Source: Candidatus Woesebacteria bacterium (GTDB lineage Bacteria; Patescibacteriota; Microgenomatia; UBA1400; UBA1396). Taken from it: a DNA stretch of 64,000 nucleotides. Position numbers and translations under genes: made by a program. The notes beneath the pieces were generated by a model. The model was not told where the DNA came from. It saw nothing but the letters and a program-made list of their open reading frames with translations, and ran no database searches. The DNA lies in assembly GCA_963749595.1 (NCBI GenBank), contig CAVVNJ010000010.1, positions 1,223 through 65,222 of the forward strand, written 5' to 3'. This document shows, piece by piece, positions 5,315-50,143 of the stretch (positions are counted from its first letter, which is position 1; each line of letters begins with the position of its first letter).

Positions 5315-5362
5315 GAAGGTTAAACCTTCCAGAGGTGATTTTGTTGAAGGTCAAACCCTCCA
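5315..5362. repeat. REP-like palindromic unit pair (GAAGGTTAAACCTTC ... GAAGGTCAAACCCTCC)
   Basis: Two short self-complementary units lie between the stop of the giant gene and the 3' end of the toxin gene. Confidence 0.6.
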
Positions 5363-5369
5363 GGCTAAA

Positions 5370-7056: not shown

Positions 7057-9171
7057 ATGAAAAATACGGTATCGCGCTTGGCTCATTGGCTTTTGTGGGG
7101 CGTCACCTTCGTTCTTCCGTTTTGGTTCTTGCCCTTTCTCGGCACGAACCTCGATCGCAAAAACAAATGTTGTTCGTGGTGACCGGACTCGATTTTGGCC
7201 GTTCTCTGGTCGATTCAATCCGTTCTCACCAAACGGGTCGTGCTGTCTTTTTCCCTGATCAATTTTTCACTGTTGGCTCTGACCGGCACAATGACGGTCT
7301 CGGCCGTGCTCTCCGGACCCAACGCACTGTCTTCAACTCTCCGGGCGCGTGATCACGCTTCGCCGGACTGGCCCTAATCGCCTTGTTCGGACCGACTTTG
7401 GCGCCCGAACTTCCGTTGGAAGCACGTCGTTCGCCTCTGGTCTTACTCCGGCGTGATTTTGAGTTTCGTTTCTTGGCTGCAATTCACTCCCTGGTCGCTG
7501 GGCATCCTGGTTGAATCGCTGGTATCCCAATACCTACGCCACCAACTTGATTTTTTCTCCGGCCGAGACTCCACTCGTGCTCCTGACTTTTCTGCTGCCG
7601 TTGGCTCAGCGGATTGCTTAGCTGGTTCATCGCCAAGGATCGGGCGCGAAAGACGCTCTGGCGGCCCGCTGGAGCGATCCCCTGCTCTACGCTAGCCTAA
7701 TCAACGCCCTGACCGCCGCGATGCTGGTCTACATGTTAGCCACTAAGACCGACTTGCGTCCCCTGTTGCTGCCGTTCCCGTACGGTTGGGAAATCGCGAT
7801 CGAAAACTTCAAGAATCTCAAGGCTTTGTTCCTCGGCATCGGACCGGAAAACTTCCTCCTCGCTTTCCATCGACTGCGCGCGGCCAGCTACAACCTGCTT
7901 CCCTTCTGGATGGTGCGGTTTGGCGCAGCAGCTCCGAGCTTTTGCAGACCCTGGTGACTGGTGGGTTATTGAGCTTGGCGGCTTGGGCGGGAGTATCTGC
8001 TGTCCTTGTTCCAGGTAGTGAAGAAAATTGGTCGGAAGGAACCGGGATTGGCGGCGAGCGCCGATCGCCCACCTGATTTTGTTCTTCGTCCTTCCGTTCA
8101 ACAATCTCCTCTGGGCCACACTTGGGCTGACGGCGCTCGCCGCCCTCAACGAACTACGTCAACTGGCCCCCGAAATGGTCAAGGAAGTAGTTGTTCTGTT
8201 GTCCGCCATTCGGGTGGTCTCGACCGAATAACATCAAGACCATTCGCACTCAAGCGGGTTTCTCGCTGGCGGTAGCAATTTCGGTGGTCGCGTTATCAGC
8301 TCTTTTGGCCTACGGGGCCGGTCGAGTCTGGGCGGCCAGTGTCTTCTTTGAATTCTCGCGCCAGAGTGCCCTGCGCAACGAAGCGGTCCCAACCTATTTA
8401 AATCTGCAGCGGGCCATCGCCTTGCAGCCAAACAACTCGTCCTATCGACGTTCGTATGCCTCCACTAACCTGGCCCTCGCTCAGTCACTGACTACTAAAA
8501 AGGATCTGACCGATCAGGAAAAACAGTCCCTGACCACCCTGGTTCAACAAGCCCTCCGCGAATCCCGGAACGCGGCCTCGCTCAATCCGGCGGAAACCGA
8601 AAACTGGGAAACCTTGGCTAATATTTATGCCAATTTGCTGGAAGTGGAAGGGGCCGATCAGTGGGCCACCGCGGCGAATATTCAAGCCATTCAAACCGAT
8701 CCTGTTTCGCCCGGATTGCGATTGTCTCTTGGCAATCTTTATCTGACCCTGGGCAATGTCGACCAGGCTCTCCGGGCTTATGAACAAACGGTGCAGCTGA
8801 AGCCGGACTGGGTCGATGCTTTCGGCAATTACGGCGTTGCTCTGGAGAAAAAACAGGAGCTGGCCCTGGCTCTTCAGGCATTCCAAAAAGCACGATCCCT
8901 AACTCCTGGCGATTCGGAGTTGGCTAAGGCACTGGACGAGCGGATTGCAGCTTTGCAAAAGCAGGTCGAGGCCAAGCAGGCCGCGGAGAAAAAAGCGGAC
9001 GCCACCGCTGACAAAAAACAAGTTCCGGCCCCGACCAAGCCCAGCGTCCCCTCCACTCCGGAGCAGGAAGCGGTCCCGGGCGGGTTTGAGGAAGTCGTGA
9101 GCGGCGAGCAGCCGGAGGCAACCCCCACCCCGGAAAGCAAAGTCGTTCTCCCCTCCGATGTCGGCTTCTAA
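7057..9171 (+). pseudogene. Polytopic membrane domain fused to C-terminal TPR repeats (architecture like O-antigen-ligase/TPR fusions); N-terminal two thirds frame-broken, last 326 codons (8191-9171) intact
   Basis: ATG at 7057 follows a GAGGAAGGA RBS. Hydrophobic fragments occur in three frames between 7057 and 8200. TPR-like repeats follow (..ALRAYEQTVQLKPDWVDAFGNYGVALEKKQELALALQAFQKA..). Confidence 0.45.
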
Positions 9172-9184
9172 CCGTGTTCAATGC

Positions 9185-9270
9185 AGGAATCATTCCTACC
9201 GAATCTCACCTCAGGAGGAATCAATCCGGATTGATTACTCCAGGCGTAGGGTGAGGTAGGAATGATTCCT
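9185..9270. repeat. 86-bp nested palindromic element, copy 1 (intergenic)
   Basis: Outer arms are AGGAATCATTCCTACC / GGTAGGAATGATTCCT. The inner hairpin core is CACCTCAGGAGGAATCAATCCGGATTGATT. A second copy lies at 32844-32929. Confidence 0.8.
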
Positions 9271-9757
9271 ATTGGTTGCAAACCATGTAGACGTTCGCCA
9301 CAATTTGGGCTTCGGCGATGCCGCAAGCACGTTGGCTGGCGGCCGCCTGTTGATCGGAACTGGTCTCAAGAACGGCGGTTAACCGAAAATCGTCATCGCT
9401 AATATTCTGGAAGGTATAAACATAGCTGCCGCTATTGATGGGATCCACCGGCAGGGTCATGTAGGTCGTGCTGGCACTGCCAAAAGCCGCTCCCCAGGCG
9501 CAAGCCGCATCGCCCGCGGCACCGCAACCGGCAATTTGCCCGGACGCGCTATTGTCGGGATAAGCTTGGTAGTCGTTGTAATACAGCCGCAACGCCGTCT
9601 TGATCGACTGAAGATCGCTCTTGCGCCGCGCGTCCCTCCCCCGCTCGCGAACACTGGCAAAATTGACAAACAAGAACCCGGCGAGAATGCCAATGATGGA
9701 AATCACCACCAGCAACTCGATTAGGGTAAAACCGGAAAAATTATTTTTGGCCTTCAT
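9269..9757 (-). CDS. Prepilin-type N-terminal cleavage/methylation protein (GspG/PilA-like pseudopilin)
   Basis: The N-terminus is MKAKNNFSG|FTLIELLVVISIIGILAG. Confidence 0.85.
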   Translation of the reverse strand: MKAKNNFSGFTLIELLVVISIIGILAGFLFVNFASVRERGRDARRKSDLQSIKTALRLYYNDYQAYPDNSASGQIAGCGAAGDAACAWGAAFGSASTTYMTLPVDPINSGSYVYTFQNISDDDFRLTAVLETSSDQQAAASQRACGIAEAQIVANVYMVCNQ

Positions 9758-10277: not shown

Positions 10278-10916
10278 CTAGGGACAGGTCCCCACAAAAC
10301 ACCCTGTGCCGGTGCTGTTACATTTGTAATTCGAGCCTGGGCAACACAAGCCACATTGATTGGCATAACAAAAAAAGTTGCCGGCCGTGCCGCAAGTTGG
10401 CTCCAGCAGCGGCGTCGGCGTCGGGGTGGGTTCTCCCCCGCCTACATTGACCACCGGATTGAGACCGTAGTTGTAATCTCCCCCGCCGTCGCCGGCGTCA
10501 TCCGGACCGCACCCCTGATCACAACTCAGGGAAGCGACAATTGGGTCGTCAGCATACTCCAGATCAGCATACAAACTGTAACTTAGCCGATCGGCGCTGG
10601 GAACATAGCGGTACGGAATTTTACGTATTGGATCACAATAAATCGAGTCCAGATAGGGCTGCAATTCGGTTCCGGAACAGTTGTCGAGGGCGGTCGAGTC
10701 CGGATAAACGCCGTAGTCCTCGCGGTACTCTTCCAGCACCACCCGATATTTTTCCAGATGGCTCTTGCGGACGCTATCCCGGCTTTTTTGCAAAAAGGGA
10801 ATAATAACAAACATCGTGATGAGCGACAAAAAGGCAATGATCGCCGTGACCACCAGCAACTCGATCAAGGTCAGACCTTCCAGAGAAAACTTTGTTAAAG
10901 GTCTGACCTTCCTCAT
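10278..10916 (-). CDS. Pilin-like protein with a Cys-rich C-terminal domain; the leader peptide is encoded by a REP element
   Basis: The N-terminus is MRKVRPLTKFSLEG|LTLIELLVVTAIIAF. The C-terminal 40 aa carry 9 Cys (..CGTAGNFFCYANQCGLCCPGSNYKCNSTGTGCFVGTCP). Confidence 0.7.
   Translation of the reverse strand: MRKVRPLTKFSLEGLTLIELLVVTAIIAFLSLITMFVIIPFLQKSRDSVRKSHLEKYRVVLEEYREDYGVYPDSTALDNCSGTELQPYLDSIYCDPIRKIPYRYVPSADRLSYSLYADLEYADDPIVASLSCDQGCGPDDAGDGGGDYNYGLNPVVNVGGGEPTPTPTPLLEPTCGTAGNFFCYANQCGLCCPGSNYKCNSTGTGCFVGTCP
10867..10912. repeat. REP-like inverted pair AAGGTCAGACCTTCC-N16-AAGGTCTGACCTTCC
   Basis: Seen directly. It overlaps codons 2-17 of the pilin-like gene and lies 38 nt from the RAYT gene. 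Confidence 0.8.
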
Positions 10917-10949: not shown

Positions 10950-11387
10950 CTAAATCTTGGTTCCCACGTGTTTCCAACCAATCAACCCGGCCTCGATTGG
11001 GTTTCGGAGAATATACTCCCGTACCCGCTCACGCTCGGCTTCGGTCCGTAAATAGACGGCCCGGAAACTGCCCTCAAACTGCTGCCCCGTCAAGGAATAC
11101 TTCTTTCGGAGGTATAAACCATAGCGAATCATTATCGAGCGCATGAACTCGGTAATGTCCCGCTGCTGTTTTTGAAAATAACGAAAATGAAAGTGGGTAT
11201 CGAGCAGACAATAAGTATCGACCAATATCAGTCCCGCCATCTCCCGGATTTTCCGCCGCACAATTTTGCGAAAAACCCAATAGTCTTTGTCCTCGAAGAA
11301 AACCGGCTGTTTATTAACTCCCCTGGAGTAAATATGGTACCAACCGTTTTCGACGTATGGGAAAATGCGATTGATTCTTGGCATCAT
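10950..11387 (-). mobile_element. REP-associated tyrosine transposase (RAYT, IS200/Y1-like)
   Basis: It has the HUH-type motif (..LLDTHFHFRYF..) and the C-terminal ..REYILRNPIEAGLIGW.. typical of RAYT/Y1 transposases. REP units flank it on both sides. Confidence 0.75.
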
Positions 11388-11453
11388 TATCTTTTAGCAG
11401 AAAAAACTGACCAAAAACTTACAACTACCGGAAACTATTGGGCTATTTAGCCT

Positions 11454-11468
11454 GGAAGGTATGACCTT
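11454..11468. repeat. Single REP-like unit (GGAAGGTATGACCTT) on the other flank of the RAYT
   Basis: Seen directly. Confidence 0.5.
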
Positions 11469-11913: not shown

Positions 11914-11950
11914 GGTCAGAGGAATATTATACCATCTGGAAGGTTTGACT

Positions 11951-13170
<1,220 letters not shown>

Positions 13171-16221: not shown

Positions 16222-16693
16222 GGAATATACATCTCCCTGGCCAGTTGCGCCTCAAATGGGTGGGTAAAGGCACCGGGAAGATCCGCTTGGAGGAACATTT
16301 GGGTACCGTTGGCGTCCAGTCCGGCAATTTAGGGACTTTTTCTGAGCCATTGGGATGCCAATTTAAAACTGGGGACTTTTCGGGGACTATTTGAGTCCAG
16401 GGCGTCAAGTCGAGTAGGGTTGTGTCTGTGATTACCGCGTCGATTAACTATCGTTCCCAATATCCACCACTTTCTGCAGCCGACCGAGTTCTCTGAATTT
16501 GATGGTCCATAAAAGGTACGCATAAAGTCCCCGATTTAAAGTCGGCACACTAAAGGCACCTAAAAGCTCCTTATTCGACCAACCGGGGTTAAACCAGAAC
16601 CAATTGTGGACCATTAAGGGAACATCACTGGAACATTTACGGACTATTTCGGGCGCAAATCGCTGGGAGGATATAGATCCCAAACTCGTGAAG
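16222..16693. mobile_element. TIR-bounded repeat element, copy C (divergent, no RHH ORF)
   Basis: The left end is GGAATATACATCTCCCTGGCCAGTTGCGCC. The right end is GGCGCAAATCGCTGGGAGGATATAGATCCCAAACTCGTGAAG. The right end and the following ..TTGTGAAAAACCAAAA match copy B. Confidence 0.55.
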
Positions 16694-16716
16694 AGAATTG
16701 TGAAAAACCAAAAGAC

Positions 16717-18099
16717 TCACCCCCCGCTAGCCCGCGGAATCAAACCTGATACGTGTTTCAGGTCTTTCGCGCTGCGGACTGACTTGTAGCCAAGTCGCTG
16801 CGCCTCTTTAATCCTCTTTTCCAAACCAACTACCCGTCGCACCTCGCCCAATAAGCCGATTTCACCACAATACACGAGCTCGTCCCCAAGCGACTTCTCC
16901 TTTTTCGATGAGATCAGCGCCGCCCCTACCGCCAAATCAATGCCCGGATCGCGAAACTCTAAGTTGCCCACCACATTCACAAAAACATCATGGTCAGACA
17001 GATCCAACTTTGCATGCTTCTGTAAAACGGCCAGCAACAAATGTAGTTTGTTCACATTTATTCCTCGACTTACCCGCCGTGGCGAAGGCAGGTAGGAACG
17101 CACGACTAAAGCCTGGACCTCAACCACCACGGGCCGGGTTCCCTCCAGACAAACCGCCAGCGCCGATCCTGGTTTCCCCAGGGATTGTTCTTCCAAAAAG
17201 ATCTCTGCGGGATTGCTCACCTCTTGGGCGCCATCACCAGTCAGGCGGAACAAACCGACCTCATCGGTCGGGCCAAACCGGTTTTTTAAGGAGCGAACCA
17301 GGCGTATTTCTCCTGATCTATCACCCGTTATCTCGATTACTGCATCAACAATATGTTCAAGGATTTTTGGCCCGGCAATGTCGCCGTCTTTGGTGACATG
17401 GCCTACCAAGAAAATTGGCGTTCCACTCTGCTTGGCCCAGGAAATTAAGCGCAAAGTCGTCTCCCGTAGTTGCGCTACCGAGCCAACAATGCCCGTTAAG
17501 TCGCTGGTAAACATGCTCTGTATCGAGTCCACGATGACTAGTGTTGGCCGCTTGTCCCCCACCAAACCCAACAATTGATCAATGTCAGTGACGGCTGAAA
17601 AGGACAAACGGCTTAAATAATCGGTTTTAGCTTTGGCAGACGGACCGGTCATTCGTTCAATGCGGAGAGCAATTTGGGTCGGACTTTCCTCACCGGCCAC
17701 ATAAAGAATATTCTGCTTTGGTTGGTCCATAAGCATTTTAAGTATCATCTGAGTAAGGATTGTTGACTTACCAATTCCTGGCTGGCCGCCAACCAAAAAA
17801 ACCGAACCTTTCACGATACCACCACCAAAAACCCGATCCAGTTCGTAGAGGCCGGTGGGGAGGCGGCCAGCCGACTCTTCCTTCCGCGCCATCACGTCTA
17901 AGGCGGAAACATAGTCCTCGGCCGCAAGGCCGTAGAAAGCGGAATTTCGGCGCTTCTGCTCCGTGGCTGGCATTACCACTGACTCCACCAGCGTGTTCCA
18001 AGCCCCGCACTGCCCGCACTGCCCACCCCATTTGGGAAAGCTGGCGCCGCAAGCATCACAGGTATATTGAGTTTTGGGTTTCGCTGGGGTTTTAGGCAT
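16717..18099 (-). CDS. radA: DNA repair protein RadA/Sms
   Basis: It has the zinc ribbon CDACGASFPKWGGQCGQCGAWNT, the Walker A motif GGQPGIGKST, KNRFG, and a Lon-like C-terminal domain. Confidence 0.95.
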   Translation of the reverse strand: MPKTPAKPKTQYTCDACGASFPKWGGQCGQCGAWNTLVESVVMPATEQKRRNSAFYGLAAEDYVSALDVMARKEESAGRLPTGLYELDRVFGGGIVKGSVFLVGGQPGIGKSTILTQMILKMLMDQPKQNILYVAGEESPTQIALRIERMTGPSAKAKTDYLSRLSFSAVTDIDQLLGLVGDKRPTLVIVDSIQSMFTSDLTGIVGSVAQLRETTLRLISWAKQSGTPIFLVGHVTKDGDIAGPKILEHIVDAVIEITGDRSGEIRLVRSLKNRFGPTDEVGLFRLTGDGAQEVSNPAEIFLEEQSLGKPGSALAVCLEGTRPVVVEVQALVVRSYLPSPRRVSRGINVNKLHLLLAVLQKHAKLDLSDHDVFVNVVGNLEFRDPGIDLAVGAALISSKKEKSLGDELVYCGEIGLLGEVRRVVGLEKRIKEAQRLGYKSVRSAKDLKHVSGLIPRASGG

Positions 18100-21229: not shown

Positions 21230-21312
21230 AATTCCTTCCTGTTTCTGGCATCAGTATTACACTCGATTATCTCCCCGTCCAGTCTCTGACGGCATAAAAA
21301 AACGCCATTCAC

Positions 21313-21426
21313 CCGGCCCTGAGCTATTCTCCCACATCGTTGCCAATGCAGTACGTTCACCGCTGCGGCGTTTCAAGACTCTGTTCGGAAAGGGAAGAGT
21401 TGGGACCACCGCGCACTAAGGACCGG
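21313..21426 (-). rRNA. rrf: 5S rRNA
   Basis: The reverse complement reads CCGGTCCTTAGTGCGCGGTGGTCCCAACTCTTCCCTTTCCGAACAGAGTCTTGAAACGCCGCAGCGGTGAACG...GGGCCGG. The termini pair and a T7 run follows. Confidence 0.8.
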
Positions 21427-21444
21427 ATGAATGGCGTCTCTCTC

Positions 21445-21521
21445 GGGTCTGACCCTCAGGGTCAAACGGATCCATCATCAAATGTTCAAGTACAGGTCTT
21501 TACCCCCGGAGGGTCAGACCC
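21445..21521. repeat. REP-like palindromic units in the 23S-5S spacer
   Basis: The units are GGGTCTGACCC, AGGGTCAAAC, AGGTCTTTACCC and GAGGGTCAGACCC. Confidence 0.5.
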
Positions 21522-21538
21522 GTAGTGTTCACGAGCAC

Positions 21539-21562
21539 TTCGCTCGCAAACAAGTAGAGAGA
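21539..21562 (-). other. 3' half of the 23S processing stem
   Basis: TTCGCTCGCAAACAAGTAGAGAGA is the near-perfect inverted complement of 24714-24737. Confidence 0.7.
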
Positions 21563-21710
21563 CACCAGCTTTTTCCGAAGAAAAAGTCGGCTTTCAAAAA
21601 ACCTACACGCAATCATTTTTTCGCGTCTGTTTCCCGAAGGAAACGTTCGAATTTGTGGTCGATTTCTCGAGCCAGCATATGCTGACTCATTAACAACCAC
21701 GTGTATTCAA

Positions 21711-24621
<2,911 letters not shown>

Positions 24622-24713
24622 TGAATCAACATGAAATGACTGCGTGTCGATAATAACGAATTATTATCATTTGCGGAGCGGCGCGAACGCCGCTCCATGC
24701 GGTTTCTTGATTG

Positions 24714-24737
24714 TCTCTCTACTTGTTCACGAGCGAA
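24714..24737 (-). other. 5' half of the 23S processing stem
   Basis: TCTCTCTACTTGTTCACGAGCGAA pairs with 21539-21562, in the manner of an RNase III-type flanking helix. Confidence 0.7.
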
Positions 24738-24879
24738 AGGACGCGCGCAAGTCTTTCGACTCGGGCAACGCCCAATCTCCATTTCTGCGCCGGAAAACTA
24801 AGTAAAAATCACGGCCCGCTATGACTAGCAAAACCTGAAAAGTGATGTATGTACGAAGTTGTCTTTAGCAGAGGACTGT

Positions 24880-24908
24880 AATATACCATGCGACCCGCCG
24901 AGTGGCAA
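24880..24908 (-). promoter_or_regulatory. Sigma70-like promoter dedicated to 23S-5S
   Basis: The minus strand reads cccTTGCCA-N17-TATATTac. The -35 lies at 24903-24908 and the -10 at 24880-24885. Confidence 0.6.
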
Positions 24909-24971
24909 GGGGAAAGCGGATGCGTCTTTGTAGCATAATAAAACATCGATCTATAAATGGAGGGACAACGA

Positions 24972-25000
24972 TTGACGAGCTTCTAGCGACTGGTTAAACT
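24972..25000 (+). promoter_or_regulatory. Candidate promoter for the 25029 gene
   Basis: TTGACG-N17-TAAACT lies upstream, and an AAGGAG RBS precedes the ATG at 25029. Confidence 0.4.
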
Positions 25001-25028
25001 GATCTCAGCGCTATTATAAGGAGCATGC

Positions 25029-25931
25029 ATGAAAATCAAAAGGAAACAACGCCCAATTATTGCCATCTTAGCTTTGATCCTGATTGCCGGAGCAGGCGTC
25101 GTTGTTTATTTGACTTCCCAACGTGTTACCACCCAAACCAGCGATGAGCGAGCCGCCGCCAGCGCTACTTTAAAATGTGCTAAGGGCACGAAGAATTGTA
25201 TTTTGGGAGCCGTAAAAGCTGAAGGATGTACCATCATTGGTGGTGCGGCCGATACCGCCAAGCCTGGCGACTCACTACAGATTAAAGCCACTTATCAGGG
25301 TGAAACAATTGGCACAGCGACCGCTAATGAGCCAACCCAGTTCCCGCCAGCTATCAAAGGCACCCCCGGCAATCATGGTTTTACTATCGATCTGACCGAT
25401 AAGCTGCCTGTGGGAGTCAATAAAGTTGAGGTGGTTGCCTCACCCGCCACCGGCAGCTCATCAAAAGAAACCATTATTTCCGGAGCCCTAGAAGCAACCC
25501 GCAGATCCGGAACCAACTTTGCCCTGGTGAATTGCGGCGGCTTGGCCTGGAATGCAGTCTCCTCAAAACACCTTCCGGCTAAGACTGCTGCTCAACGCTC
25601 ATATCAATTCAGCATAACCGTAAAAAATACCGGAACTACTGACTGGCGCTTTGACGAAATTTATGGTCAGGTTTCCGTAGCGGTGTATGACCGCACCAAG
25701 AATCAGTATGTTGCTAGTTCCGGCATTGTTGTTGCTCCTAACAAAAATCACCTTGATGCTGATCAGGTGATAGCGACCGGACAAAGCAAGACTTTTAACT
25801 TTACGGTCGAAACCAAGAAAGCGGGCATGTATTTTCTAACTTTTGACCTAAAAACTACCGATGGCAATCGGCCTCTACGATTCACGGGTCAAAGCAAATC
25901 CGAAGGCTCTTTCCCGGTAACCGTTGAATAG
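25029..25931 (+). CDS. Secreted/anchored hypothetical protein (300 aa)
   Basis: The N-terminal signal/anchor is MKIKRKQRPIIAILALILIAGAGVVVYL. No catalytic motif was found. Confidence 0.55.
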   Translation: MKIKRKQRPIIAILALILIAGAGVVVYLTSQRVTTQTSDERAAASATLKCAKGTKNCILGAVKAEGCTIIGGAADTAKPGDSLQIKATYQGETIGTATANEPTQFPPAIKGTPGNHGFTIDLTDKLPVGVNKVEVVASPATGSSSKETIISGALEATRRSGTNFALVNCGGLAWNAVSSKHLPAKTAAQRSYQFSITVKNTGTTDWRFDEIYGQVSVAVYDRTKNQYVASSGIVVAPNKNHLDADQVIATGQSKTFNFTVETKKAGMYFLTFDLKTTDGNRPLRFTGQSKSEGSFPVTVE

Positions 25932-25955
25932 AGCATTTAGACGGACTAGCACGCT

Positions 25956-26032
25956 TGGTGGACCCTAGGAGATTCGAACTCCTGACCTCTTCATTGCAAA
26001 TGAAGCGCTCTAGCCAGCTGAGCTAAGGGCCC
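25956..26032 (-). tRNA. tRNA-Ala (anticodon TGC), CCA encoded
   Basis: Hand fold: GGGCCCT TA GCTC AGCTGGCTA GAGC G CTTCA TTTGCAA TGAAG AGGTC AGGAG TTCGAAT CTCCT AGGGTCC ACCA. Confidence 0.9.
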
Positions 26033-26078
26033 GCGATAGCAAATTATATCATTTCGGGTGTGCGATAATTTCCTGGCT

Positions 26079-27164
26079 ATGAATAAAAGAGTCTTGTCGT
26101 TTGACCTAATCCGCACCTTCGCTATCTTGGGCGTAGTTGCCACCCACACTGAAGCGATCACTGCTTCGACCACAAATTATCTCGGAGGGATTTCCTGGTG
26201 GTTAGCCAATACGCTCCATTCCCTGGCTGCAGTCAGCATTCCTCTATTCGTAATGTTAACTGGAGCGCTGGTGCTGACGAAGGCCAAAATCAGCTGGGGT
26301 TACATTGGGCCCAAGATCGTCCGGCTTTTCATAATCCCGTTATTGTTTTGGTGGCCGCTATATTACTGGTGGACCACGATTCGGCCAGGCGGATCGTTCC
26401 AGCTGGTCGATCTTGTTCGTCGATTTTTCATTGTAGACATCGGCCATCTATATTATCTGCCGGTAGTCATTGGCTTATATTTGATTCTCCCCTTCCTCTC
26501 GACACGCCTCCATAAAATGCAGAAGAAACATTTCCCGCTCCTGCTGGGAGTGGTCACGAGTGTTGTGCTGATTTATCGGCATTTAAGTTTCTTTGTTTTC
26601 CGATCAACTAGCTCAACCAACATCGCCCTTATTTTCCTTCCTTACCTGATGTATCTCCTTTGGGGGTTCTTCCTTTCCGGAATACGCATCAGCCGCAAAG
26701 CCTGCTTTATCCTCTTGGAGATAGCGATTATCTTGATCGGACTATCGTCACTGCTTACTTATCAAAATACTCTGGCCTACAATTTGGGTAATCGGTTTTT
26801 TTGGACCAATGGTGGCGGCAACTTCTTTTGGGACCCTTTTACGGTCCCACTGCTGATATTATCCGCCACCGTATTTCTCCTACTAATGAATATCGAAATC
26901 GTCCTCCCAACCATCTTCCGTTCCCGTTGGTTGAAGAACTCATTGGTCGTTATTTCCAGCGCCAGCTTTGGAATTTATCTTATCCACCCGATTGTGATGG
27001 AAGTCCTCGACAACTGGCTGAGGATATCGATCCAGTTCATCAGCTACCCGCTCTGGATTTGGTATTTCCAGCGAACCACTCTGGTGTTTCTTGCCTCGGC
27101 AGGACTATCCATCTTGGCAATAAAAATACCTGTTATCCGAAATGTTTTTGGCGCGAGAAATTGA
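26079..27164 (+). CDS. Membrane acyltransferase (acyltransferase-3/OafA-like family)
   Basis: It starts MNKRVLSFDLIRTFAILGVVATH and has about 10 hydrophobic helices. Confidence 0.75.
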   Translation: MNKRVLSFDLIRTFAILGVVATHTEAITASTTNYLGGISWWLANTLHSLAAVSIPLFVMLTGALVLTKAKISWGYIGPKIVRLFIIPLLFWWPLYYWWTTIRPGGSFQLVDLVRRFFIVDIGHLYYLPVVIGLYLILPFLSTRLHKMQKKHFPLLLGVVTSVVLIYRHLSFFVFRSTSSTNIALIFLPYLMYLLWGFFLSGIRISRKACFILLEIAIILIGLSSLLTYQNTLAYNLGNRFFWTNGGGNFFWDPFTVPLLILSATVFLLLMNIEIVLPTIFRSRWLKNSLVVISSASFGIYLIHPIVMEVLDNWLRISIQFISYPLWIWYFQRTTLVFLASAGLSILAIKIPVIRNVFGARN

Positions 27165-27170
27165 CTCGCC

Positions 27171-27521
27171 CTACTCGTCTTCATCATCTGGTTCGTCTGG
27201 TTCATCATGCGGCTCACCATCCGTTGTAAAGTCCAGCGGTGGCGAATAAAAAGCCGCCGCGTGTGGTTCGCTGGATAGAACCGGCTTGATTCCATGCTTG
27301 GCAAAACCATCCTCCAACCAGGACTGAGCCCGAAAATTGCTCACACTGACTTCCATTTCATCGACAAATCCAGAAGCGGCAAACGAAGTCAGCGGCAAAC
27401 CCTGTTTGACTTCGGCATCCCAAATTGTCTTCTGAATTTCTTTATATTTATCGATGTTCTCTCGACCCCTAATTGTGTAGAACCATTTCCTGGGTTGAGG
27501 TTCAGTTTCCCGACTTAGCAT
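27171..27521 (-). CDS. Hypothetical protein with an acidic C-terminal tail
   Basis: ORF only. The tail is ..DEPDEPDDEDE. Confidence 0.4.
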   Translation of the reverse strand: MLSRETEPQPRKWFYTIRGRENIDKYKEIQKTIWDAEVKQGLPLTSFAASGFVDEMEVSVSNFRAQSWLEDGFAKHGIKPVLSSEPHAAAFYSPPLDFTTDGEPHDEPDEPDDEDE

Positions 27522-27569
27522 AAAATCCTTTTTTCCAGGTTATTTATTAGTGATTATAGCAAAATTAGA

Positions 27570-28058
27570 TCAATTGCCTTTGCTCTTCCGGCGAATTTTT
27601 TCTGCGACCCTGGCCAACTCCTCATCCGGCACGCGCGGGCCGTTGTTCGAGCACAAATAGCCTGGATATTCCGGAAAAACCATTTCCTTGACATCACTGT
27701 CGATCGGCCGCCAACCCGCGCGATACTTAGCGGTACCGTGCATCGGGAACAGCTTGGCGTGCAGGTGGTCCACTCCGTAACCCTCGAAAAATAAACCCGT
27801 CCGCTCCACGTCATCGGCATAAGCCTGGTCGATTAGTTTGGCAACTTTTTTACTGGCGATCACCAAATCAGCGATCACCGAATCATCGTTATTGAAAGCA
27901 TAGCTATCGAGATGTTCTTTGGTCGCTACCACGGTAAAAGCTTCAGTATTGGGGAAAATCGTCAAAAACGCCAAGTGTTTCTCGTCTTCCCAAATTTTAT
28001 GGCAGGGAATCTCGCCGGAAACAAATTTGCAAAATAGACAATCGGGGTTAGCCTTCAT
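27570..28058 (-). CDS. HIT-family nucleotide hydrolase/transferase (variant HxHxK motif)
   Basis: It has the N-terminal CLFCKFVSGEIPCHKIWEDEKHLAFL and ..GVDHLHAKLFP... Confidence 0.75.
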   Translation of the reverse strand: MKANPDCLFCKFVSGEIPCHKIWEDEKHLAFLTIFPNTEAFTVVATKEHLDSYAFNNDDSVIADLVIASKKVAKLIDQAYADDVERTGLFFEGYGVDHLHAKLFPMHGTAKYRAGWRPIDSDVKEMVFPEYPGYLCSNNGPRVPDEELARVAEKIRRKSKGN

Positions 28059-28103
28059 GGAGCAATTTTAGCATTTGCTAGAATCGATTCAGAAAGGCCA
28101 AAT

Positions 28104-28532
28104 ATGCGTTGGCTTAAGCGGATGGAAACACTAAGCGGCCGGTTTCAAAAACCTGAGACCGGCAACGAAATCTGGCAGTATGGGGGCGAAGATCTGCGCG
28201 AATTGTTCTCTGTCTGGCTGCTCGACTCCATTGTCCGGACCATGAGTGTTTACCACCGGAAGAAACAGCTGCCGATTGCGTCCGAAATTGCCAATCTGCG
28301 CGAACAAGCGGCGGAAGTTGAACGGCGCCTGAGAACCAACGGCTGGTTTTTCGGGCGGGATAGTTCGATTATCAGCGATTACAAAACCATGATCGTCCGA
28401 TCCGGATCATATGGTCAACTTTTCCATGAACAATTCCGACCAGAAATGTCGACTGCCGAAGCTTTGGAATTAATGAAAAGAAATGTTGCCCTGTGGGACT
28501 GGCGCTGGTTTTGGAAGCATCACCAGCGGTAA
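28104..28532 (+). CDS. Hypothetical protein (142 aa)
   Basis: ORF only. Confidence 0.4.
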   Translation: MRWLKRMETLSGRFQKPETGNEIWQYGGEDLRELFSVWLLDSIVRTMSVYHRKKQLPIASEIANLREQAAEVERRLRTNGWFFGRDSSIISDYKTMIVRSGSYGQLFHEQFRPEMSTAEALELMKRNVALWDWRWFWKHHQR

Positions 28533-28535
28533 AAG

Positions 28536-28609
28536 TGAGGGTACTTGGACTTGAACCAAGGACCTCTGTCTTATCAGGACAGCGCTCTAGCCAACTGAGC
28601 TATACCCTC
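28536..28609 (-). tRNA. tRNA-Ile (anticodon GAT)
   Basis: Hand fold: GAGGGTA TA GCTC AGTTGGCTA GAGC G CTGTC CTGATAA GACAG AGGTC CTTGG TTCAAGT CCAAG TACCCTC A. Confidence 0.9.
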
Positions 28610-28656
28610 GATAAATCGAGTTCCAATTGTATCATAAACTGCTACAATGGCCGAGT

Positions 28657-29191
28657 ATGTCCTTCGATCGATCGACTGCTCTCAATCTCCTCGACCAATA
28701 CGTCAAAAACCCTTCCCTGCGGCGCCATTGCGAAATGGTCTCCCAGGCAATGGGCGCCTACGCCGACAAACTCGGAAAGGATCATGAACTTTGGTCGTTG
28801 ACCGGTCTGTTGCACGATCTGGATTGGGAACAATTCCCGGACGAACACCCCATGAAGGCGGTGACGGAAATTTTACCGACGGCCGGTGCCCCGGCGGAAA
28901 TGATCGAGGCGATCGCCGCCCACGCCCCTGCATCGATCCGGCAAAGAGCCGCACACCTTAATGGAACGTTATTTGTTTGCTTGCGACGAAGCCTGTGGTT
29001 TTCTGGACGCCATCGCCAAAATTCGGCCCAACGGCTATGCCGATCTGGAATGGCCATCGGTGCATAAAAAAATGAAGGATAAGCGTTTTGCCGCCAACGT
29101 TTCGCGCGAGGATATTATTAAGGGTGCCGAGTTAATCGAGTTAACCCTGGACGACCATATTTCTTTCCTGATCGACATTTTCCGGAAGTAG
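28657..29191 (+). pseudogene. HD-domain phosphohydrolase with one frameshift
   Basis: Sense switches from ..LTGLLHDLDWEQF..IEAIAAHA to ..RSGKEPHTLMERYLFACDEACGFLDAI.. in the next frame. The switch is at or near the C4 run 28925-28928. Confidence 0.65.
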
Positions 29192-29217
29192 ACACAAAAA
29201 AAGCGCCTAAGGCGCTA

Positions 29218-29270
29218 TTGGGGTCTAACCCTCTTGAAGTCAACTTGTGACCTCCGAAGGTTAGACCCCA
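29218..29270. repeat. REP-like palindromic units downstream of 16S
   Basis: GGGGTCTAACCCTC ... GAAGGTTAGACCCC. A further unit, GAGGGTTAAACCCTC, lies at about 29362-29376. Confidence 0.5.
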
Positions 29271-29377
29271 GCCCCGTCCCCATTCTCCATATTTCGCCAA
29301 TCAATCTAACGGAGCAGAAACCGATTGGTTACTTAAAGAGCGCGGGGCACTCTTAGTTTTTGAGAGGGTTAAACCCT

Positions 29378-29408
29378 CAGATAAACAGCACACGGACTGA
29401 CAGGAAGG
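29378..29408 (-). other. 3' half of the 16S processing stem
   Basis: CAGATAAACAGCACACGGACTGACAGGAAGG is the inverted complement of 31055-31084, about 28 of 30 positions by eye. Confidence 0.7.
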
Positions 29409-29499
29409 CCTGGACACTGAGATCACAGGACTTCTGGAGTTTTACTAACATTACTGTTAGAAGGGAAGAGGCGTGAGGCCCTTACCTTGAACTCCTTAG

Positions 29500-31001
<1,502 letters not shown>

Positions 31002-31054
31002 TAGAATGTAACGGAAAATTACTGTCTCACGGAGAGACAAAAGATTCCGTAAAA

Positions 31055-31247: not shown

Positions 31248-32153
31248 TTAGGAGAAAAGTTGCTTTAACTTTGGGTGCTCAACCAAACTCGATTGATAGT
31301 TGCCCGCGTCAGTTTTGGTTTGAACCAAAGAAGTATAAAGATACTGCCGATCGGGTACTAATTGGTCAATCCACTCGAGCGGATAACGACCCAAATAATC
31401 AAGAAGTGTCGACCGGCCGCTCTGAAAATAAAATGGTTGGGAAGTATGGCCTTTGCCAAAAATTATATTGTGATCCTGTTCCCGATCTAAGGTTTTGTAG
31501 GCTACCAGGGCATTGCGAAAGGTCGAGATAAAACTTTGCGGATTGGCCAGCTCAATAAAATAATTTAACCGAGCCAGTTCTTTAGCCATGGCCGGAGAAA
31601 AATCGAGTAGGGACAGAAGAGGTTTCGCCCCAGAAATTCCGGCCAAAACAGCGCCTAACCCGGCGCCTTTTCGCAAAAAATCCCGCCGCTTCAAAAGCGG
31701 CTGCGTAATGGTGAGTCCGACGGCAACCAACAGTGGTGAAACTTCGCTAACGTAACCTGGCAGGTGATTGAAAGGACAATCATTCAACACAATGCCCAAA
31801 GAATTATCCCGGATTGATCGGCGGTCATCTGGGGAGTAAGCCGAAGATAATTCAAAATGAGGGTCCAGATATTCAAAGGAAGACTCGAGAATGGTAAACC
31901 TTCCCGGGACCACATCTTCCGGCCGGATCTCACCATTGGCATAACCACCTTGACCGTGCGCCCAATAAACGGCGCGATAATTGTGCCCCTCGGCGGTAAA
32001 ATCCATCACCCGCTTGTGTAACAGAGCTTCAATGGCCGCTGAACTGGCTGCCTTGGGATCAGAACTAATCTCGGCCCCCAGATAAGCCCCGAGTGCGCCG
32101 GCGCCGATCTTCCCTCCCAAACCGATAGCCTCCCGGCGATTTAATTTAGGCAA
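31248..32153 (-). CDS. Hypothetical protein with two twin-arginine-like segments
   Basis: The N-terminus is MPKLNRREAIGLGGKIGAGALGAYLGA. An internal segment reads ..LLKRRDFLRKGAGLGAVLAGISGA... Confidence 0.5.
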   Translation of the reverse strand: MPKLNRREAIGLGGKIGAGALGAYLGAEISSDPKAASSAAIEALLHKRVMDFTAEGHNYRAVYWAHGQGGYANGEIRPEDVVPGRFTILESSFEYLDPHFELSSAYSPDDRRSIRDNSLGIVLNDCPFNHLPGYVSEVSPLLVAVGLTITQPLLKRRDFLRKGAGLGAVLAGISGAKPLLSLLDFSPAMAKELARLNYFIELANPQSFISTFRNALVAYKTLDREQDHNIIFGKGHTSQPFYFQSGRSTLLDYLGRYPLEWIDQLVPDRQYLYTSLVQTKTDAGNYQSSLVEHPKLKQLFS

Positions 32154-33303
32154 TTACTCCCCCTCCCCAGCAAATCCGGGTATCGATCGGGTCATAAAAA
32201 ACCACCGATTGTCCGGGGGCAATGCCGCGTTGAGATTCGTTCAAAATTAATTCACCCTGATCGCGGTTGATTTTTAACTCAGCGGGAAGCAGGGCGCCGC
32301 CATGACGCAAACGGGCTAGTACCGAAACAACTAGATTATCACCGGGAAAAATCTCTGGATCGCGCCAAAACAGATCGTTTAATTTAACTTTCGCGCTTTC
32401 GGTTTCCGTGCCGAAGCCGACCGTGATCGTGTTGGCCGTTGCGTCTTTGGCAATTACATAGAGCGGCGGCAAAACGTGTTTCCATTCTTGATGGTTGATG
32501 TGAACCATAGGAAATAACTCAAAACCATGGCGCTGGCCGATGGTGTACAACCATACTCCCTGGTGTCGACCAATGATGTTGCCATCCGGATCAAGGACGT
32601 CGCCAGGTTTTTCACCGAGACGCGCGCGCAAAAATTCGCGGACATCAATGTCGCCGATAAAACAAATTCCTTGCGAGTCCGGCTTGTCCGCCACCGGAAT
32701 ACCCTTTTCTTTCGCCAGGCGGCGCACTTCGGCTTTGGTCAGGTGACCGATCGGAAAAACCACGTGATCAAGCTGGTCCTGGCGCAAGCGGTACAAGAAA
32801 TACGTTTGATCCTTTTTCTCGTCCATCCCGCGCGCCAATACCAAGGAATGATTCCTACCCGACCCCACCTCAGGAGGAATCAATCCGGAATCAATCCTCT
32901 CGGGAAAGGGTCGGGTAGGAATCATTCCTGTCAACAGGATTTGGGCGTAATGGCCGGTGGCGATCGCGTCAAAACCTTGCTTGATGGCCCAGTCGTAGAA
33001 CAGGCCAAACTTGATCTCGGTGTTGCACCAAATATCCGGATTGGGGGTAAGACCGCGCTCGTAGGCGCGGAAAAATTCTTCCACCACCCGCTCGCGGTAG
33101 GCATCCCGAAAATCGAGTACGCGGAACGGCAATCCCAAATCCAACGCCACAGCCAAGGCATCTTTGCGATCCTCTTCCGCTCGGCAGCCTGGCGCCCGCC
33201 AACACTCCAAAAAGACCCCGGTCACTTCATGACCAGCGTCTTTAAGCAAGGCCGCGGAAAGCGACGAATCGACTCCGCCCGACATGCCAAGGGCTATTTT
33301 CAT
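32146..33303 (-). CDS. mnmA: tRNA-specific 2-thiouridylase MnmA carrying an in-frame ~29-codon repeat-element insertion
   Basis: It has the PP-loop KIALGMSGGVDSS, ..IATGHYA.. and ..KDQTYFLY... The extra segment MIPTRPFPERIDSGLIPPEVGSGRNHS maps onto the 86-bp element. Confidence 0.9.
   Translation of the reverse strand: MKIALGMSGGVDSSLSAALLKDAGHEVTGVFLECWRAPGCRAEEDRKDALAVALDLGLPFRVLDFRDAYRERVVEEFFRAYERGLTPNPDIWCNTEIKFGLFYDWAIKQGFDAIATGHYAQILLTGMIPTRPFPERIDSGLIPPEVGSGRNHSLVLARGMDEKKDQTYFLYRLRQDQLDHVVFPIGHLTKAEVRRLAKEKGIPVADKPDSQGICFIGDIDVREFLRARLGEKPGDVLDPDGNIIGRHQGVWLYTIGQRHGFELFPMVHINHQEWKHVLPPLYVIAKDATANTITVGFGTETESAKVKLNDLFWRDPEIFPGDNLVVSVLARLRHGGALLPAELKINRDQGELILNESQRGIAPGQSVVFYDPIDTRICWGGGVIA
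32844..32929. repeat. 86-bp nested palindromic element, copy 2 (inside mnmA)
   Basis: AGGAATGATTCCTACC...CACCTCAGGAGGAATCAATCCGGAATCAATCC...GGTAGGAATCATTCCT has the same architecture and core as 9185-9270. Confidence 0.85.
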
Positions 33304-33310
33304 GGGCGTA

Positions 33311-33709
33311 TTATACTATTTCGCTCATTTGAACCAGAAAACCCGCCAAATCATTGCCGCCAATAACCACTGGAAAAGTCAAAGCGGCGCGGTCCATCAC
33401 CGCCCAGCGCGAACGCTTGGATTTCCCGCCTAAATTAAAAGAGACCATTATTAACGAGCGTTTTTTGGCACCAAGCTCCGGAATCACTAATTCTTCCACC
33501 ACCGCATCTTCACCCAAAAGACCCAGTCGGCGCGCCAATTTCTCATCGATGACCGAATAGTCCCAAGTCGTGTTCACCTCGGCCCGAACATCCTCTTCCG
33601 GAGTGCCGTCCGGTTGGAAGAGATCGACCGAAGTTTGCGGGGGCAAGATAATTACCCCGTTCAGACGTAAAATTTGCCGTTGCAACCAATTCTTGAATTG
33701 AGTGAACAT
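33311..33709 (-). CDS. Hypothetical protein (132 aa)
   Basis: ORF only. It lies 8 nt upstream of mnmA. Confidence 0.4.
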   Translation of the reverse strand: MFTQFKNWLQRQILRLNGVIILPPQTSVDLFQPDGTPEEDVRAEVNTTWDYSVIDEKLARRLGLLGEDAVVEELVIPELGAKKRSLIMVSFNLGGKSKRSRWAVMDRAALTFPVVIGGNDLAGFLVQMSEIV

Positions 33710-41343: not shown

Positions 41344-41435
41344 CAGGTGTTTCAGTAAAGCACTACATAAGGGGCTTGTAAAGGGATCAGTTTTGGGCCG
41401 TCTTGGGGAGTCGGAGCCAGCTTTTTACCACGTGT

Positions 41436-41895
41436 TTCACGAGTTTGGGATATATACCCTCCCAGCGTTTTGCCTCCCAAATTATCCCTTAAAGTAACCT
41501 TAAACTGCTCCCTAAACTAACCGGTTTGTGGTTACTCTGGGGACTTTTGGACAGATGTGGTCCACTAGTGGTCCATCTTTGGCCAGAGTGGGCAAATAGG
41601 GGTCAAGAATGGGCGAATGGATTCCAATTACTTTCGAGCTTGATTAGCATTGGGAGCAACTACTTATCGACTACTACGCAATCAAGTTCATTCTGACAGC
41701 ATCTTTGGTTTTTAAGTAGTCGATTGGTCCCCAAATTACCCCCTGCTTGCCCGGATGGACTCAAACTAACCCAGTAATGGACCCCTACTGCCCGAAAGGT
41801 CTGATTAAGGACCCTGTTTAGGGTCACCTTTGGGAGTAATTAGAGGCCTCCGGAGGGGACAGTTTGGGAGGCAAAACGCCAGGAGGGTATATATT
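41436..41895. mobile_element. TIR-bounded repeat element, copy A (inverted relative to copy B; RHH ORF deleted/decayed)
   Basis: The ends are TTTCACGAGTTTGGGATATATACCCTCCCAGCGTTTTGCCTCCCAAATTATCCC and GGGGACAGTTTGGGAGGCAAAACGCCAGGAGGGTATATAT. The arms align by eye with 49499-50120. Confidence 0.75.
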
Positions 41896-49498: not shown

Positions 49499-50120
49499 GG
49501 ATATATATCCTCCCAGCGTTTTGCCTCCCAAACTGTCCCCTAGGGAGACCTCAAATTGCTCCCAAGGGTGACCCTAAACATGCCCTAATTCAGACCTTGC
49601 GGGCAATAGGGGTCCATTACTGGGTTAGTTTCAGTCCATCCGGGCAAACAGAGGGTAATTTGGAGACAGATCGACTAGTTAAAAACCAAAGATACTATCG
49701 GCATGCTCTTTTCTAGCCGGTGTCGATTTAGGTAGCGCTCCAGCTTGGCCAAGCTCCTGATAAATCAAATAACGAATAAAATTAGGTACAGTTAATTCTA
49801 ATAACTTGGCTCGATCTTTCAATAATCGGTAAGTAGTTGGTCCTAAGGTTAATCGAACTCGAGTATCAGCCATGAGTCTGTTTATACACTTCGATTCTTA
49901 CCCAATACTAACCGATAGCAGTTTATCGGCGGATCCACTCGCCCATTCTTGACCCTTATTTGCCCGCCATGGCCACAGATGGACCGCTGGTAGACCCCAT
50001 CTGCCCAAAAGTCCCTAGAGTAACCACAAACTGCTCCTAAAACTAACCTATCTGGGGTCACTTTCGGGGGTAATTTAGGAGGCAAAACACTGGGAGGGTA
50101 TAGATCCCAAACTCGTGAAG
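49499..50120. mobile_element. TIR-bounded repeat element, copy B (longest; carries the RHH ORF)
   Basis: The left TIR is GGATATATATCCTCCCAGCGTTTTGCCTCCCAAACTGTCCCC. The reverse complement of the right TIR is GGATCTATACCCTCCCAGTGTTTTGCCTCCTAAATTACCCC, about 36 of 42 matches by eye. Arms of about 180 nt on each side are conserved with copy A. Confidence 0.8.
49679..49873 (-). CDS. Ribbon-helix-helix (CopG/Arc-like) small protein inside TIR element B
   Basis: MADTRVRLTLGPTTYRLLKDRAKLLELTVPNFIRYLIYQELGQ... follows a beta-strand, helix, helix pattern. Confidence 0.5.
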   Translation of the reverse strand: MADTRVRLTLGPTTYRLLKDRAKLLELTVPNFIRYLIYQELGQAGALPKSTPARKEHADSIFGF

Positions 50121-50143
50121 CCATTCGTGAAAAACCAAAAATC

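Follow-up and report, generated by a model that had tools for sequence, protein, structure and literature searches.

Palindromic repeats within genes

In-frame palindromic repeats in essential genes have so far been treated mainly as a curiosity of Rickettsia. The precedent is set by the Rickettsia palindromic elements (RPE; Ogata et al. 2000), which a later review (PMC10969869) describes as short palindromic repeats of about 100–150 nt, dispersed in a small, host-dependent bacterial genome, with copies both between genes and in frame within housekeeping genes, those for tRNA modification included; the host open reading frame (ORF) stays intact and gains a peptide where the fold tolerates it. 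The present work concerns an 86-nt near-palindrome that, its shorter length apart, resembles them in these respects. It occurs twice in a stretch of 64,000 nt from a Candidatus Woesebacteria bacterium (Patescibacteriota; assembly GCA_963749595.1, contig CAVVNJ010000010.1, positions 1,223 to 65,222). This whole stretch is called the window below, and coordinates refer to it unless a locus from another genome is named. One copy (copy A) lies between genes, while the other (copy B) is read in frame within mnmA, the gene for tRNA 2-thiouridine(34) synthase. [quoted passage not shown]

REPs (PMC3733652) are GC-rich stem-loops of 20–40 nt with a terminal GTAG or CGTC tag, often linked to a REP-associated tyrosine transposase (RAYT). 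Their units commonly come in head-to-head pairs that make up larger hairpins, and they lie mostly after convergent or co-directional genes, with some found within genes. In two Xanthomonas species, recB carries different REPs at roughly one and the same site (PMC3733652), which is a precedent for the repeated occupancy of one site. MITEs that can fuse in frame to genes, such as the Coxiella QMITE, ERIC and Nezha (PMC5896051, PMC10969869), are non-coding, shorter than 300 bp and strongly structured as RNA; they are bounded by terminal inverted repeats and occasionally extend or interrupt an ORF in frame.

Two copies of a nested palindrome

A first-pass annotation of the window, made from the letters alone, had reported two copies of the element, one of them between convergent gene ends, and both were located where it placed them (Table 1). 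The copies are separated by 23.6 kb, have unrelated contexts, and share 80% identity in an ungapped alignment over 86 nt (69/86). With arms of 43–44 nt that are 79–80% complementary, they are by far the longest local palindromes found by an inverted-repeat scan of the window, and their terminal inverted repeats are perfect over 16 nt in copy A and over the outer 22 bp in copy B. The outer arms that had been proposed hold exactly: the pattern AGGAATSATTCCTACC has four exact matches in the window, one per end per copy and all of them within the two elements, and seven matches when up to two mismatches are allowed, against 0.06 expected from shuffled sequences. The 28-nt central hairpin proposed together with them is an idealised consensus that is exact in neither copy, as copy A departs from it by one mismatch (GATTACTCC) and copy B has its right half flipped, giving GGAATCAATCC GGAATCAATCC.

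Each end of the element consists of a self-palindromic 13-mer, AGGAAT-S-ATTCCT, followed by an 18-nt linker and a related inner motif, and the two halves are mirrored, so that the units are paired in opposite orientation as in REPs or bacterial interspersed mosaic elements (BIME). The inner motifs are inverted relative to each other in copy A, and the flip of the right one in copy B results in a tandem centre. Both terminal 13-mers have one base as their centre of symmetry and cannot fold on themselves; by their sequence, they look like a two-fold symmetric duplex site. Folded as RNA in the mnmA sense, copy B reaches −56.5 kcal/mol (z = −7.5, none of 200 shuffles being as stable), and copy A reaches −45.4 kcal/mol (z = −6.6, with shuffles never as stable); the z-scores are strong for both strands. 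There is a single compensatory pair between the two copies, which is uninformative as covariation. Neither copy matched a family of Rfam 15 at the gathering score, the matches in the window being rRNAs and tRNAs only.

Copy A starts 13 nt past the stop codon of an ORF with TPR repeats (8191–9171, plus strand), and it ends with 2 nt that also belong to the TAG stop codon of a pilin-like ORF (9269–9757, minus strand). A T-run terminator and a promoter consensus were sought there and neither was found; the absence of a T-run rules out copy A as a canonical intrinsic terminator.

Table 1 Positions of the palindromic elements, their parts and the host genes in the window.
Feature	Position	Strand	Description
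Copy A	9185..9270		86-nt near-palindrome, convergent genes on either side
Copy B	32844..32929		86-nt nested near-palindrome within mnmA
Copy B, left outer arm	32844..32865		22 nt, AGGAATGATTCCTACCCGACCC; starts with the self-palindromic 13-mer AGGAATGATTCCT
Copy B, right outer arm	32908..32929		22 nt, exact reverse complement of the left arm; ends with AGGAATCATTCCT
Copy B, central pair of inner motifs	32875..32898		tandem direct repeat (A)GGAATCAATCC GGAATCAATCC(T); inverted in copy A
Copy B, part 1		plus	terminal self-palindromic 13-mer, AGGAATGATTCCT
Copy B, part 2		plus	18-nt linker, ACCCGACCCCACCTCAGG
Copy B, part 3		plus	inner motif, AGGAATCAATCC
Copy B, part 4		plus	inner motif, GGAATCAATCCT
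Copy B, part 5		plus	mirrored linker, CTCGGGAAAGGGTCGGGT
Copy B, part 6		plus	terminal 13-mer, AGGAATCATTCCT
mnmA, tRNA 2-thiouridine(34) synthase	32146..33303	minus	intact ORF, 385 aa, carries copy B
Codons M127–S153 from the element	32845..32925	minus	27 codons, MIPTRPFPERIDSGLIPPEVGSGRNHS; from the translation and the six-frame table
Second-family sites	5316–5363, 10867–10914, 11452–11468, 11936–11952, 12238–12281		motif AAGGTNNNACCTTCCAG
Second-family hairpin in obg	12238–12281	minus	44 nt, AAGGTCAGACCTTCC..GGAAGGTCTGACCTT; inverted pair in the GTPase domain

Set beside the RPE, the element fits the same functional class: it is present at more than one unrelated locus, it is free of stops within a conserved ORF, and orthologues without it exist (P0005 and P0006); according to the structural model described below, it would form a surface insert that leaves the fold and the catalytic residues in place. 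It differs from the RPE in its host phylum, its length of 86 nt and the lack of a CGTC tag in either copy, and also in that only two copies are visible and no sequence relation to the RPE is apparent. Moreover, RPE families are described as encoding a conserved peptide, while the orthologous inserts considered here are conserved at the nucleotide level. Membership in the Rickettsia RPE families proper was rejected, CGTC being absent and the host being a Patescibacterium, with no alignment made to the consensus sequences of these families (RPE-1 to RPE-10). The location of copy A is one that is usual for REPs and the head-to-head pairing of units is shared with them, whereas GTAG occurs here only within the arm (GGTAGGAAT), two bases inside the terminal 13-mer; this 13-mer is symmetric with a 1-nt centre and forms no hairpin of its own, and no RAYT was seen in the window. 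As in MITEs, the element is short, non-coding and strongly structured, with terminal inverted repeats of 16–22 bp, but the whole of it is one palindrome instead of inverted repeats around a unique core, and a target-site duplication, a partner insertion sequence and a high copy number are not seen here. A search of the full-text literature turned up no description of elements of this kind, be it in Patescibacteria or in MnmA. The element is thus a new family of a known kind in a new phylum, namely RPE-like or intragenic REP/MITE-like selfish palindromes.

In-frame reading of the element in mnmA

The identity of the host gene is clear from its similarity to MnmA chains of the PDB (E = 5e-74) and from the Pfam domains PF03054, PF20259 and PF20258. 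Its translation across the element is ...ATGHYAQILLTG-MIPTRPFPERIDSGLIPPEVGSGRNHS-LVLARGMDEKKDQTYFL, which bears out the earlier claim that the element is read in frame between the ATGHYA and KDQ(S/T)YFL motifs. Copy B extends from the third base of T125 through G126 and M127–S153 to the first base of L154, so that it comprises 28 whole codons and two partial ones, and 27 aa separate TG from LVLARG in the translation. In the orientation of mnmA, the six-frame table shows that the sole stop-free frame of the element is the one used by the gene. The read-through is predicted to yield the tryptic peptide IDSGLIPPEVGSGR. The insertion site is the tip of a β-hairpin, with ATGHYA on one side and KDQTYFL on the other. 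The loop between these motifs has 43 aa here, compared to 14–22 aa in 89 of 119 homologues; the lengthening noted in the first-pass annotation is therefore real, while the normal length of about 20–25 aa that it gave is too high. The nearest orthologues without an insert have a loop of 18 aa, which puts the net gain at 25 aa.

Other kinds of intervening sequence were considered and rejected. An intein would have at least about 130 aa compared to the 27 aa of the insert, and an intron or translational bypass is incompatible with the frame and with the lack of an in-frame stop, a hop between the GGA triplets of the arms being one that would leave the downstream mnmA frame. An antisense ORF of 279 aa (32527–33366, plus strand) runs through mnmA and across the element (QGMIPTRPHLRRNQSGINPLGKGSGRNHSC); it is open because the element is free of stops in the same phase on the opposite strand, and it is probably spurious, although it could mislead gene callers.

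The first-pass annotation had left it undecided whether the element is tolerated as a protein insertion or has inactivated the gene without breaking its frame, and the state of mnmA speaks for the former. All columns that are invariant over 71 homologues are kept in the MnmA of the window, including the PP-loop SGGVDS, D90 and C93 in PNPDIWCN and C214 in GICFIG, the last three residues being those that we take to correspond to Asp99, Cys102 and Cys199 of E. coli MnmA. Outside the loop, the ratio of nonsynonymous to synonymous substitution rates (dN/dS) is 0.037 between the window and its closest orthologue (locus L121, which has an insert of its own), 0.073 between the window and L123, and 0.030 between L130 and L132, with synonymous sites saturated between lineages (dS of at least 1.3–2). 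The AlphaFold model of the protein has a mean predicted local distance difference test score (pLDDT) of 86.6 and a predicted template modelling (TM) score of 0.85, and it superposes on the MnmA crystal structures 2HMA/2DET with TM-scores of 0.82–0.88. As the annotation had suggested, the structure was modelled with the insert: residues 127–153 come out as a low-confidence coil without secondary structure (pLDDT 48–56) between the strands 121–124 and 154–157, and the remainder as a confident MnmA fold. A recent pseudogene with an unbroken frame would be conceivable given 27 extra residues in a catalytic domain, and given that obg, another gene of the window, carries two frameshifts, so that damaged genes or assembly indels do occur there. 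This is very unlikely, as the ORF is full-length with every invariant column in place, dN/dS is 0.03–0.07 in insert-carrying lineages, a quarter of the homologues tolerate an expansion at the same position, and the insert is modelled at a hairpin tip within a confident surrounding fold. The gene looks alive and is under purifying selection, and the insert is presumably translated and harmless in vivo. Tolerance of a miniature palindromic element as a protein insertion, the first of the two options of the annotation, fits the motifs, the dN/dS values and the model alike.

A foldback or chimeric join made during assembly was also considered, since palindromes are a known trouble spot for assemblers and obg in the window shows what look like indel errors. 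However, the product is encoded in identical form (385 aa) on a Logan contig assembled independently, with records in three contig-size classes, which argues against the chimera that the annotation had named as a possible objection. A second, diverged copy is present in the window, and analogous inserts are found in orthologues from unrelated samples, so that an artefact has next to no probability.

The same loop in orthologues

A loop of at least 23 aa is found at this site in 30 of the 119 Patescibacteria homologues. Among the orthologues closest to the window, P0005 and P0006 (70% identity) are insert-free, while P0002, P0003 and P0004 (80, 71 and 69% identity, respectively) have the same loop filled with inserts of other sequence and length. 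The DNA of the insert was obtained for eight insert-bearing mnmA genes, the one in the window included; all eight loci fold better than their shuffles (z = −2.4 to −11.8), compared to z = +1.0 for the empty locus L125, and three of the eight inserts, the window copy among them, are strong, near-perfect palindromes. The inserts differ widely in sequence and length, are specific to their lineage, and are patchily distributed over a rough tree. The lineage-specificity anticipated from the window is hence true of the sequences, but the insertion is no one-off of a strain, as the loop has been occupied repeatedly across Patescibacteria. A homologous peptide encoded by non-palindromic DNA in relatives would have spoken against an inserted element; what the orthologues have is different peptides from different palindromic DNA, or none.

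Several pairs of loci illustrate gain or loss at this position. P0029 and P0035 are 93% identical as proteins and 83% as DNA and have a 120-bp difference at exactly this loop, and the empty allele of L132 retains GAACCTTCTCC, the outer end of the L130 palindrome. The insert of L123 aligns to the window element with its arms swapped relative to mnmA (z = 9.4), and as judged by this alignment it is a relative that would have been inserted or flipped independently. In the closest orthologue, P0002 (L121, 3404–3469), the insert contains a perfect 25-nt direct repeat, GGAGAAACATTCCGGAAGCGATCTC, at a spacing of 41 nt, together with an inverted copy of its first half; from its sequence, this palindrome appears to have been remodelled and not simply to have decayed. 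Larger expansions were also observed: P0104 has a 92-aa loop, seemingly with a duplicated LLRGxDxKKD segment, and P0034 and P0026 have large inserts at another, C-terminal site, which indicates that loops prone to expansion exist at more than one site of MnmA in Patescibacteria.

The inserts of L130 and L131 can be aligned colinearly and without gaps, and allow the level at which they are conserved to be determined. Each contains four copies of a perfect 11-nt palindrome, AGGTT-S-AACCT in L130 and AGGTG-W-CACCT in L131, all four motif cores having switched together between the two. The flanks of the motifs (ACCTCCAGGGGTG and CCCCTGGAGGT) are identical, and the central loop is randomised. Identity at the first, second and third codon positions is 0.62, 0.70 and 0.62 in the insert, compared to 0.83, 0.89 and 0.40 in the rest of the gene, and where the two proteins have the same residue, the codon is also the same in 17 of 21 cases in the insert versus 119 of 281 elsewhere in the gene. 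The inserts are thus conserved as nucleotides and not as peptide. Directly past the stop codon of mnmA in L131 (1678–1733), two direct copies of CTGGAGGTGTCACCTT, which carries the same motif as the insert, are found 29 nt apart. This pair shows that the unit of about 29 nt is arrayed directly as well as inverted, and it matches the L131 insert to a family specific to that genome. For these two loci, either the inserts postdate the split of the hosts and come from each genome's own family, or they have been homogenised or selected at the nucleotide level; one of these must be true.

Selection brings in another explanation, in which the palindrome is a cis-acting RNA or DNA structure, either a pausing or RNase III-sensitive hairpin that sets the level of MnmA or a site for protein binding or recombination. 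It would account for the persistence of palindromy at the same loop despite saturated synonymous sites and for the L130/L131 pattern, in which stems and motif flanks are about 90% conserved around a randomised central loop, with no codon-position periodicity. The perfect stem of 22 bp in the window copy would be long enough for RNase III, and it may affect the stability of the mRNA or the passage of the ribosome. On the other hand, the close relatives P0035, P0005 and P0006 are insert-free with an equally constrained gene, sequences and lengths vary widely among lineages, the same element also lies between genes, and the concerted switch of four motif cores exceeds what the pairing of a stem needs. 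We consider such a selected structure unlikely.

A second palindrome family

The window holds a second family of palindromes, defined by the motif AAGGTNNNACCTTCCAG, of which there are 11 matches against 0.46 expected (Table 1). One inverted pair lies in obg, where the hairpin is read in frame as 13 residues that neither the solved structures of Obg nor any of its ten closest homologues contain. Another pair forms codons 3–17 of a pilin-like leader (MRKVRPLTKFSLEG directly before LTLIELL), and single copies are found upstream of the ORF 10950–11387 and between obg and the gene for tRNA-Ala. A model for which the mnmA inserts of L130 and L131 were the only input matches the window at 5316–5357 (E = 1e-4), so that the second family is the one that occupies mnmA in those lineages, and is dispersed over genomes and loci. 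Homology of the 86-nt family to the L130/L131 family was looked for and set aside, as cross-matches were not significant (E = 3–7 and 0.7–3, with a control set for the 86-nt model that is biased by the choice of loci containing the arm 16-mer), and only a shared architecture is claimed. A generic module, GG-N5-7-CC-YYCCWG, showed no enrichment apart from the second family (9 matches, with 4.2 expected).

The obg gene itself (12027–13143, minus strand) consists of two overlapping ORFs. One frameshift comes from an extra T in AACTTTGAC near 12686 and a second lies near 12110, and the conserved C-terminus goes on in another frame. These are either assembly indels or signs of a decaying gene, and the state of obg is uncertain because of the two frameshifts in the assembly.

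Further copies, mobility and origin

Several observations weigh against a mobile selfish repeat. Just two copies of the 86-nt family are visible in the window. When the 16-mer of the arm was searched for in genome contigs, none of the matches listed (at least 120 stretches) was near a second arm or the central motif, and they are for this reason taken as chance matches. In metagenome contigs, a pattern with both arms gave no match, and the central 20-mer gave one, a chance match within a nadC-like ORF; a pattern scan of viral contigs was likewise negative. Peptide-level searches found no other protein with the element: a concatenated six-frame query gave no match, which is a weak negative as the source protein was missed too, and a profile of the three stop-free element peptides retrieved only Ig-repeat proteins with SGxLPPG out of 1.84 billion representatives. 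No target-site duplication was found for either family; the flanks of copies A and B have only weak similarity (TGTT.., ATTGG) without a direct repeat, and the ATTGG next to copy B belongs to the native gene, as it is also present in L121. Among the 49 ORFs of the window there is no transposase domain of Pfam, and no transposase or insertion sequence that shares the ends of the element was found in it. As 86 is not divisible by three, a plain insertion of 86 nt cannot by itself give an intact frame, and the in-frame state requires an overlap with native bases or an additional small change. Lastly, passive decay of a single old insertion cannot explain why the arms stay perfect and the one loop is refilled while synonymous sites are saturated.

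Several of these points would sit comfortably with palindromes that form on the spot in a sequence prone to this, through hairpin-primed template switching or slippage and without transposition, with second copies produced by rare recombination: no target-site duplication or transposase would be expected, nor a length that is a multiple of three. Template switching can also yield the flip of the inner 11-mer to a direct repeat that is seen in the mnmA copy, each lineage has its own sequence, and the L130 outer end kept in the empty L132 allele can be read in the same way. What this explanation does not accommodate is an 86-nt copy of 80% identity at a distance of 23.6 kb and in an unrelated context, the motif pair outside the gene in L131, and the match of the L130/L131 model elsewhere in the window, and we regard an origin in place as quite improbable.

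In the selfish-repeat explanation that we favour, the element would have moved by transposition or recombination, and a copy would have reached the structurally permissive hairpin tip in the PP-loop domain of MnmA. The version of mnmA that survived would be the in-frame one, in the only stop-free frame that the element has in that orientation. The ribosome would read through it to give a Pro/Gly-rich, probably disordered loop of 27 residues that leaves the fold and the catalytic residues undisturbed. The peptide would be a passenger, and the nucleotide palindrome the conserved part of such inserts. The loop at the hairpin tip would be permissive and possibly preferred, relatives having gained, remodelled and lost other palindromic repeats there.

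A more far-reaching possibility, which we hold to be doubtful, is that modular palindromic repeats form a superfamily that spans Patescibacteria, for which this loop is a specific site of landing or conversion, and whose symmetric recognition half-sites (AGGTT, AGGTG, AGGTC and AGGAAT) change in concert in each genome. If so, a sequence-specific machinery for mobilisation or gene conversion, so far unknown, would be implied, and selfish hairpins would have a regular route for remodelling the loops of essential proteins (MnmA, Obg, pilin leaders) in reduced genomes.

A larger repeat is also present in the window. Two inverted, non-coding copies (41422–41894 and 49499–50133) of 470–635 bp are 87–89% identical, are bounded by inverted ends of about 60–73 nt (GGATATATACCCTCCCAGCG...), and flank a 7.6-kb block with genes for DNA ligase, Fic and RecF-like proteins, among others. 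A solo end is found at 16633–16721, just past radA. A composite structure is one possibility for this repeat, a MITE-like element of larger size another.

Implications and genomic context

A phenomenon of the Rickettsia type is thus encountered in a bacterium of the candidate phyla radiation (CPR), in two normally essential genes within one window of 64 kb, and among the relatives examined, roughly one in four has such repeats in a single loop of MnmA. The finding suggests selfish hairpins as a source from which protein loops in small symbiotic genomes repeatedly gain variation. What is added to the known cases is a single MnmA loop in which genome-specific palindromes have settled again and again. 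Inserts in CPR proteins should accordingly not be dismissed as misassemblies or pseudogenes, and because the conservation lies in the DNA, an alignment of such loops at the peptide level is meaningless. With the MnmA loop, the gain of palindromes, the upkeep of their perfection and their loss could be studied in a natural series. The significance would be greater should site-specific targeting or a concerted evolution of the recognition half-sites be confirmed.

The rRNA genes of the window are spread out, with protein genes between them (21311–31004): the 16S gene lies at 29500–31004, the 23S gene at 21698–24610 and the 5S gene at 21311–21427. The interval between the 16S and 23S genes contains ORFs with HD and HIT domains, an acyltransferase, a 300-aa ORF without a Pfam match, the genes for tRNA-Ile and tRNA-Ala, and two small ORFs without a Pfam match (27171–27521 and 28104–28532). 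The mnmA gene shares its strand with the 16S gene and lies some 1.1 kb upstream of it.

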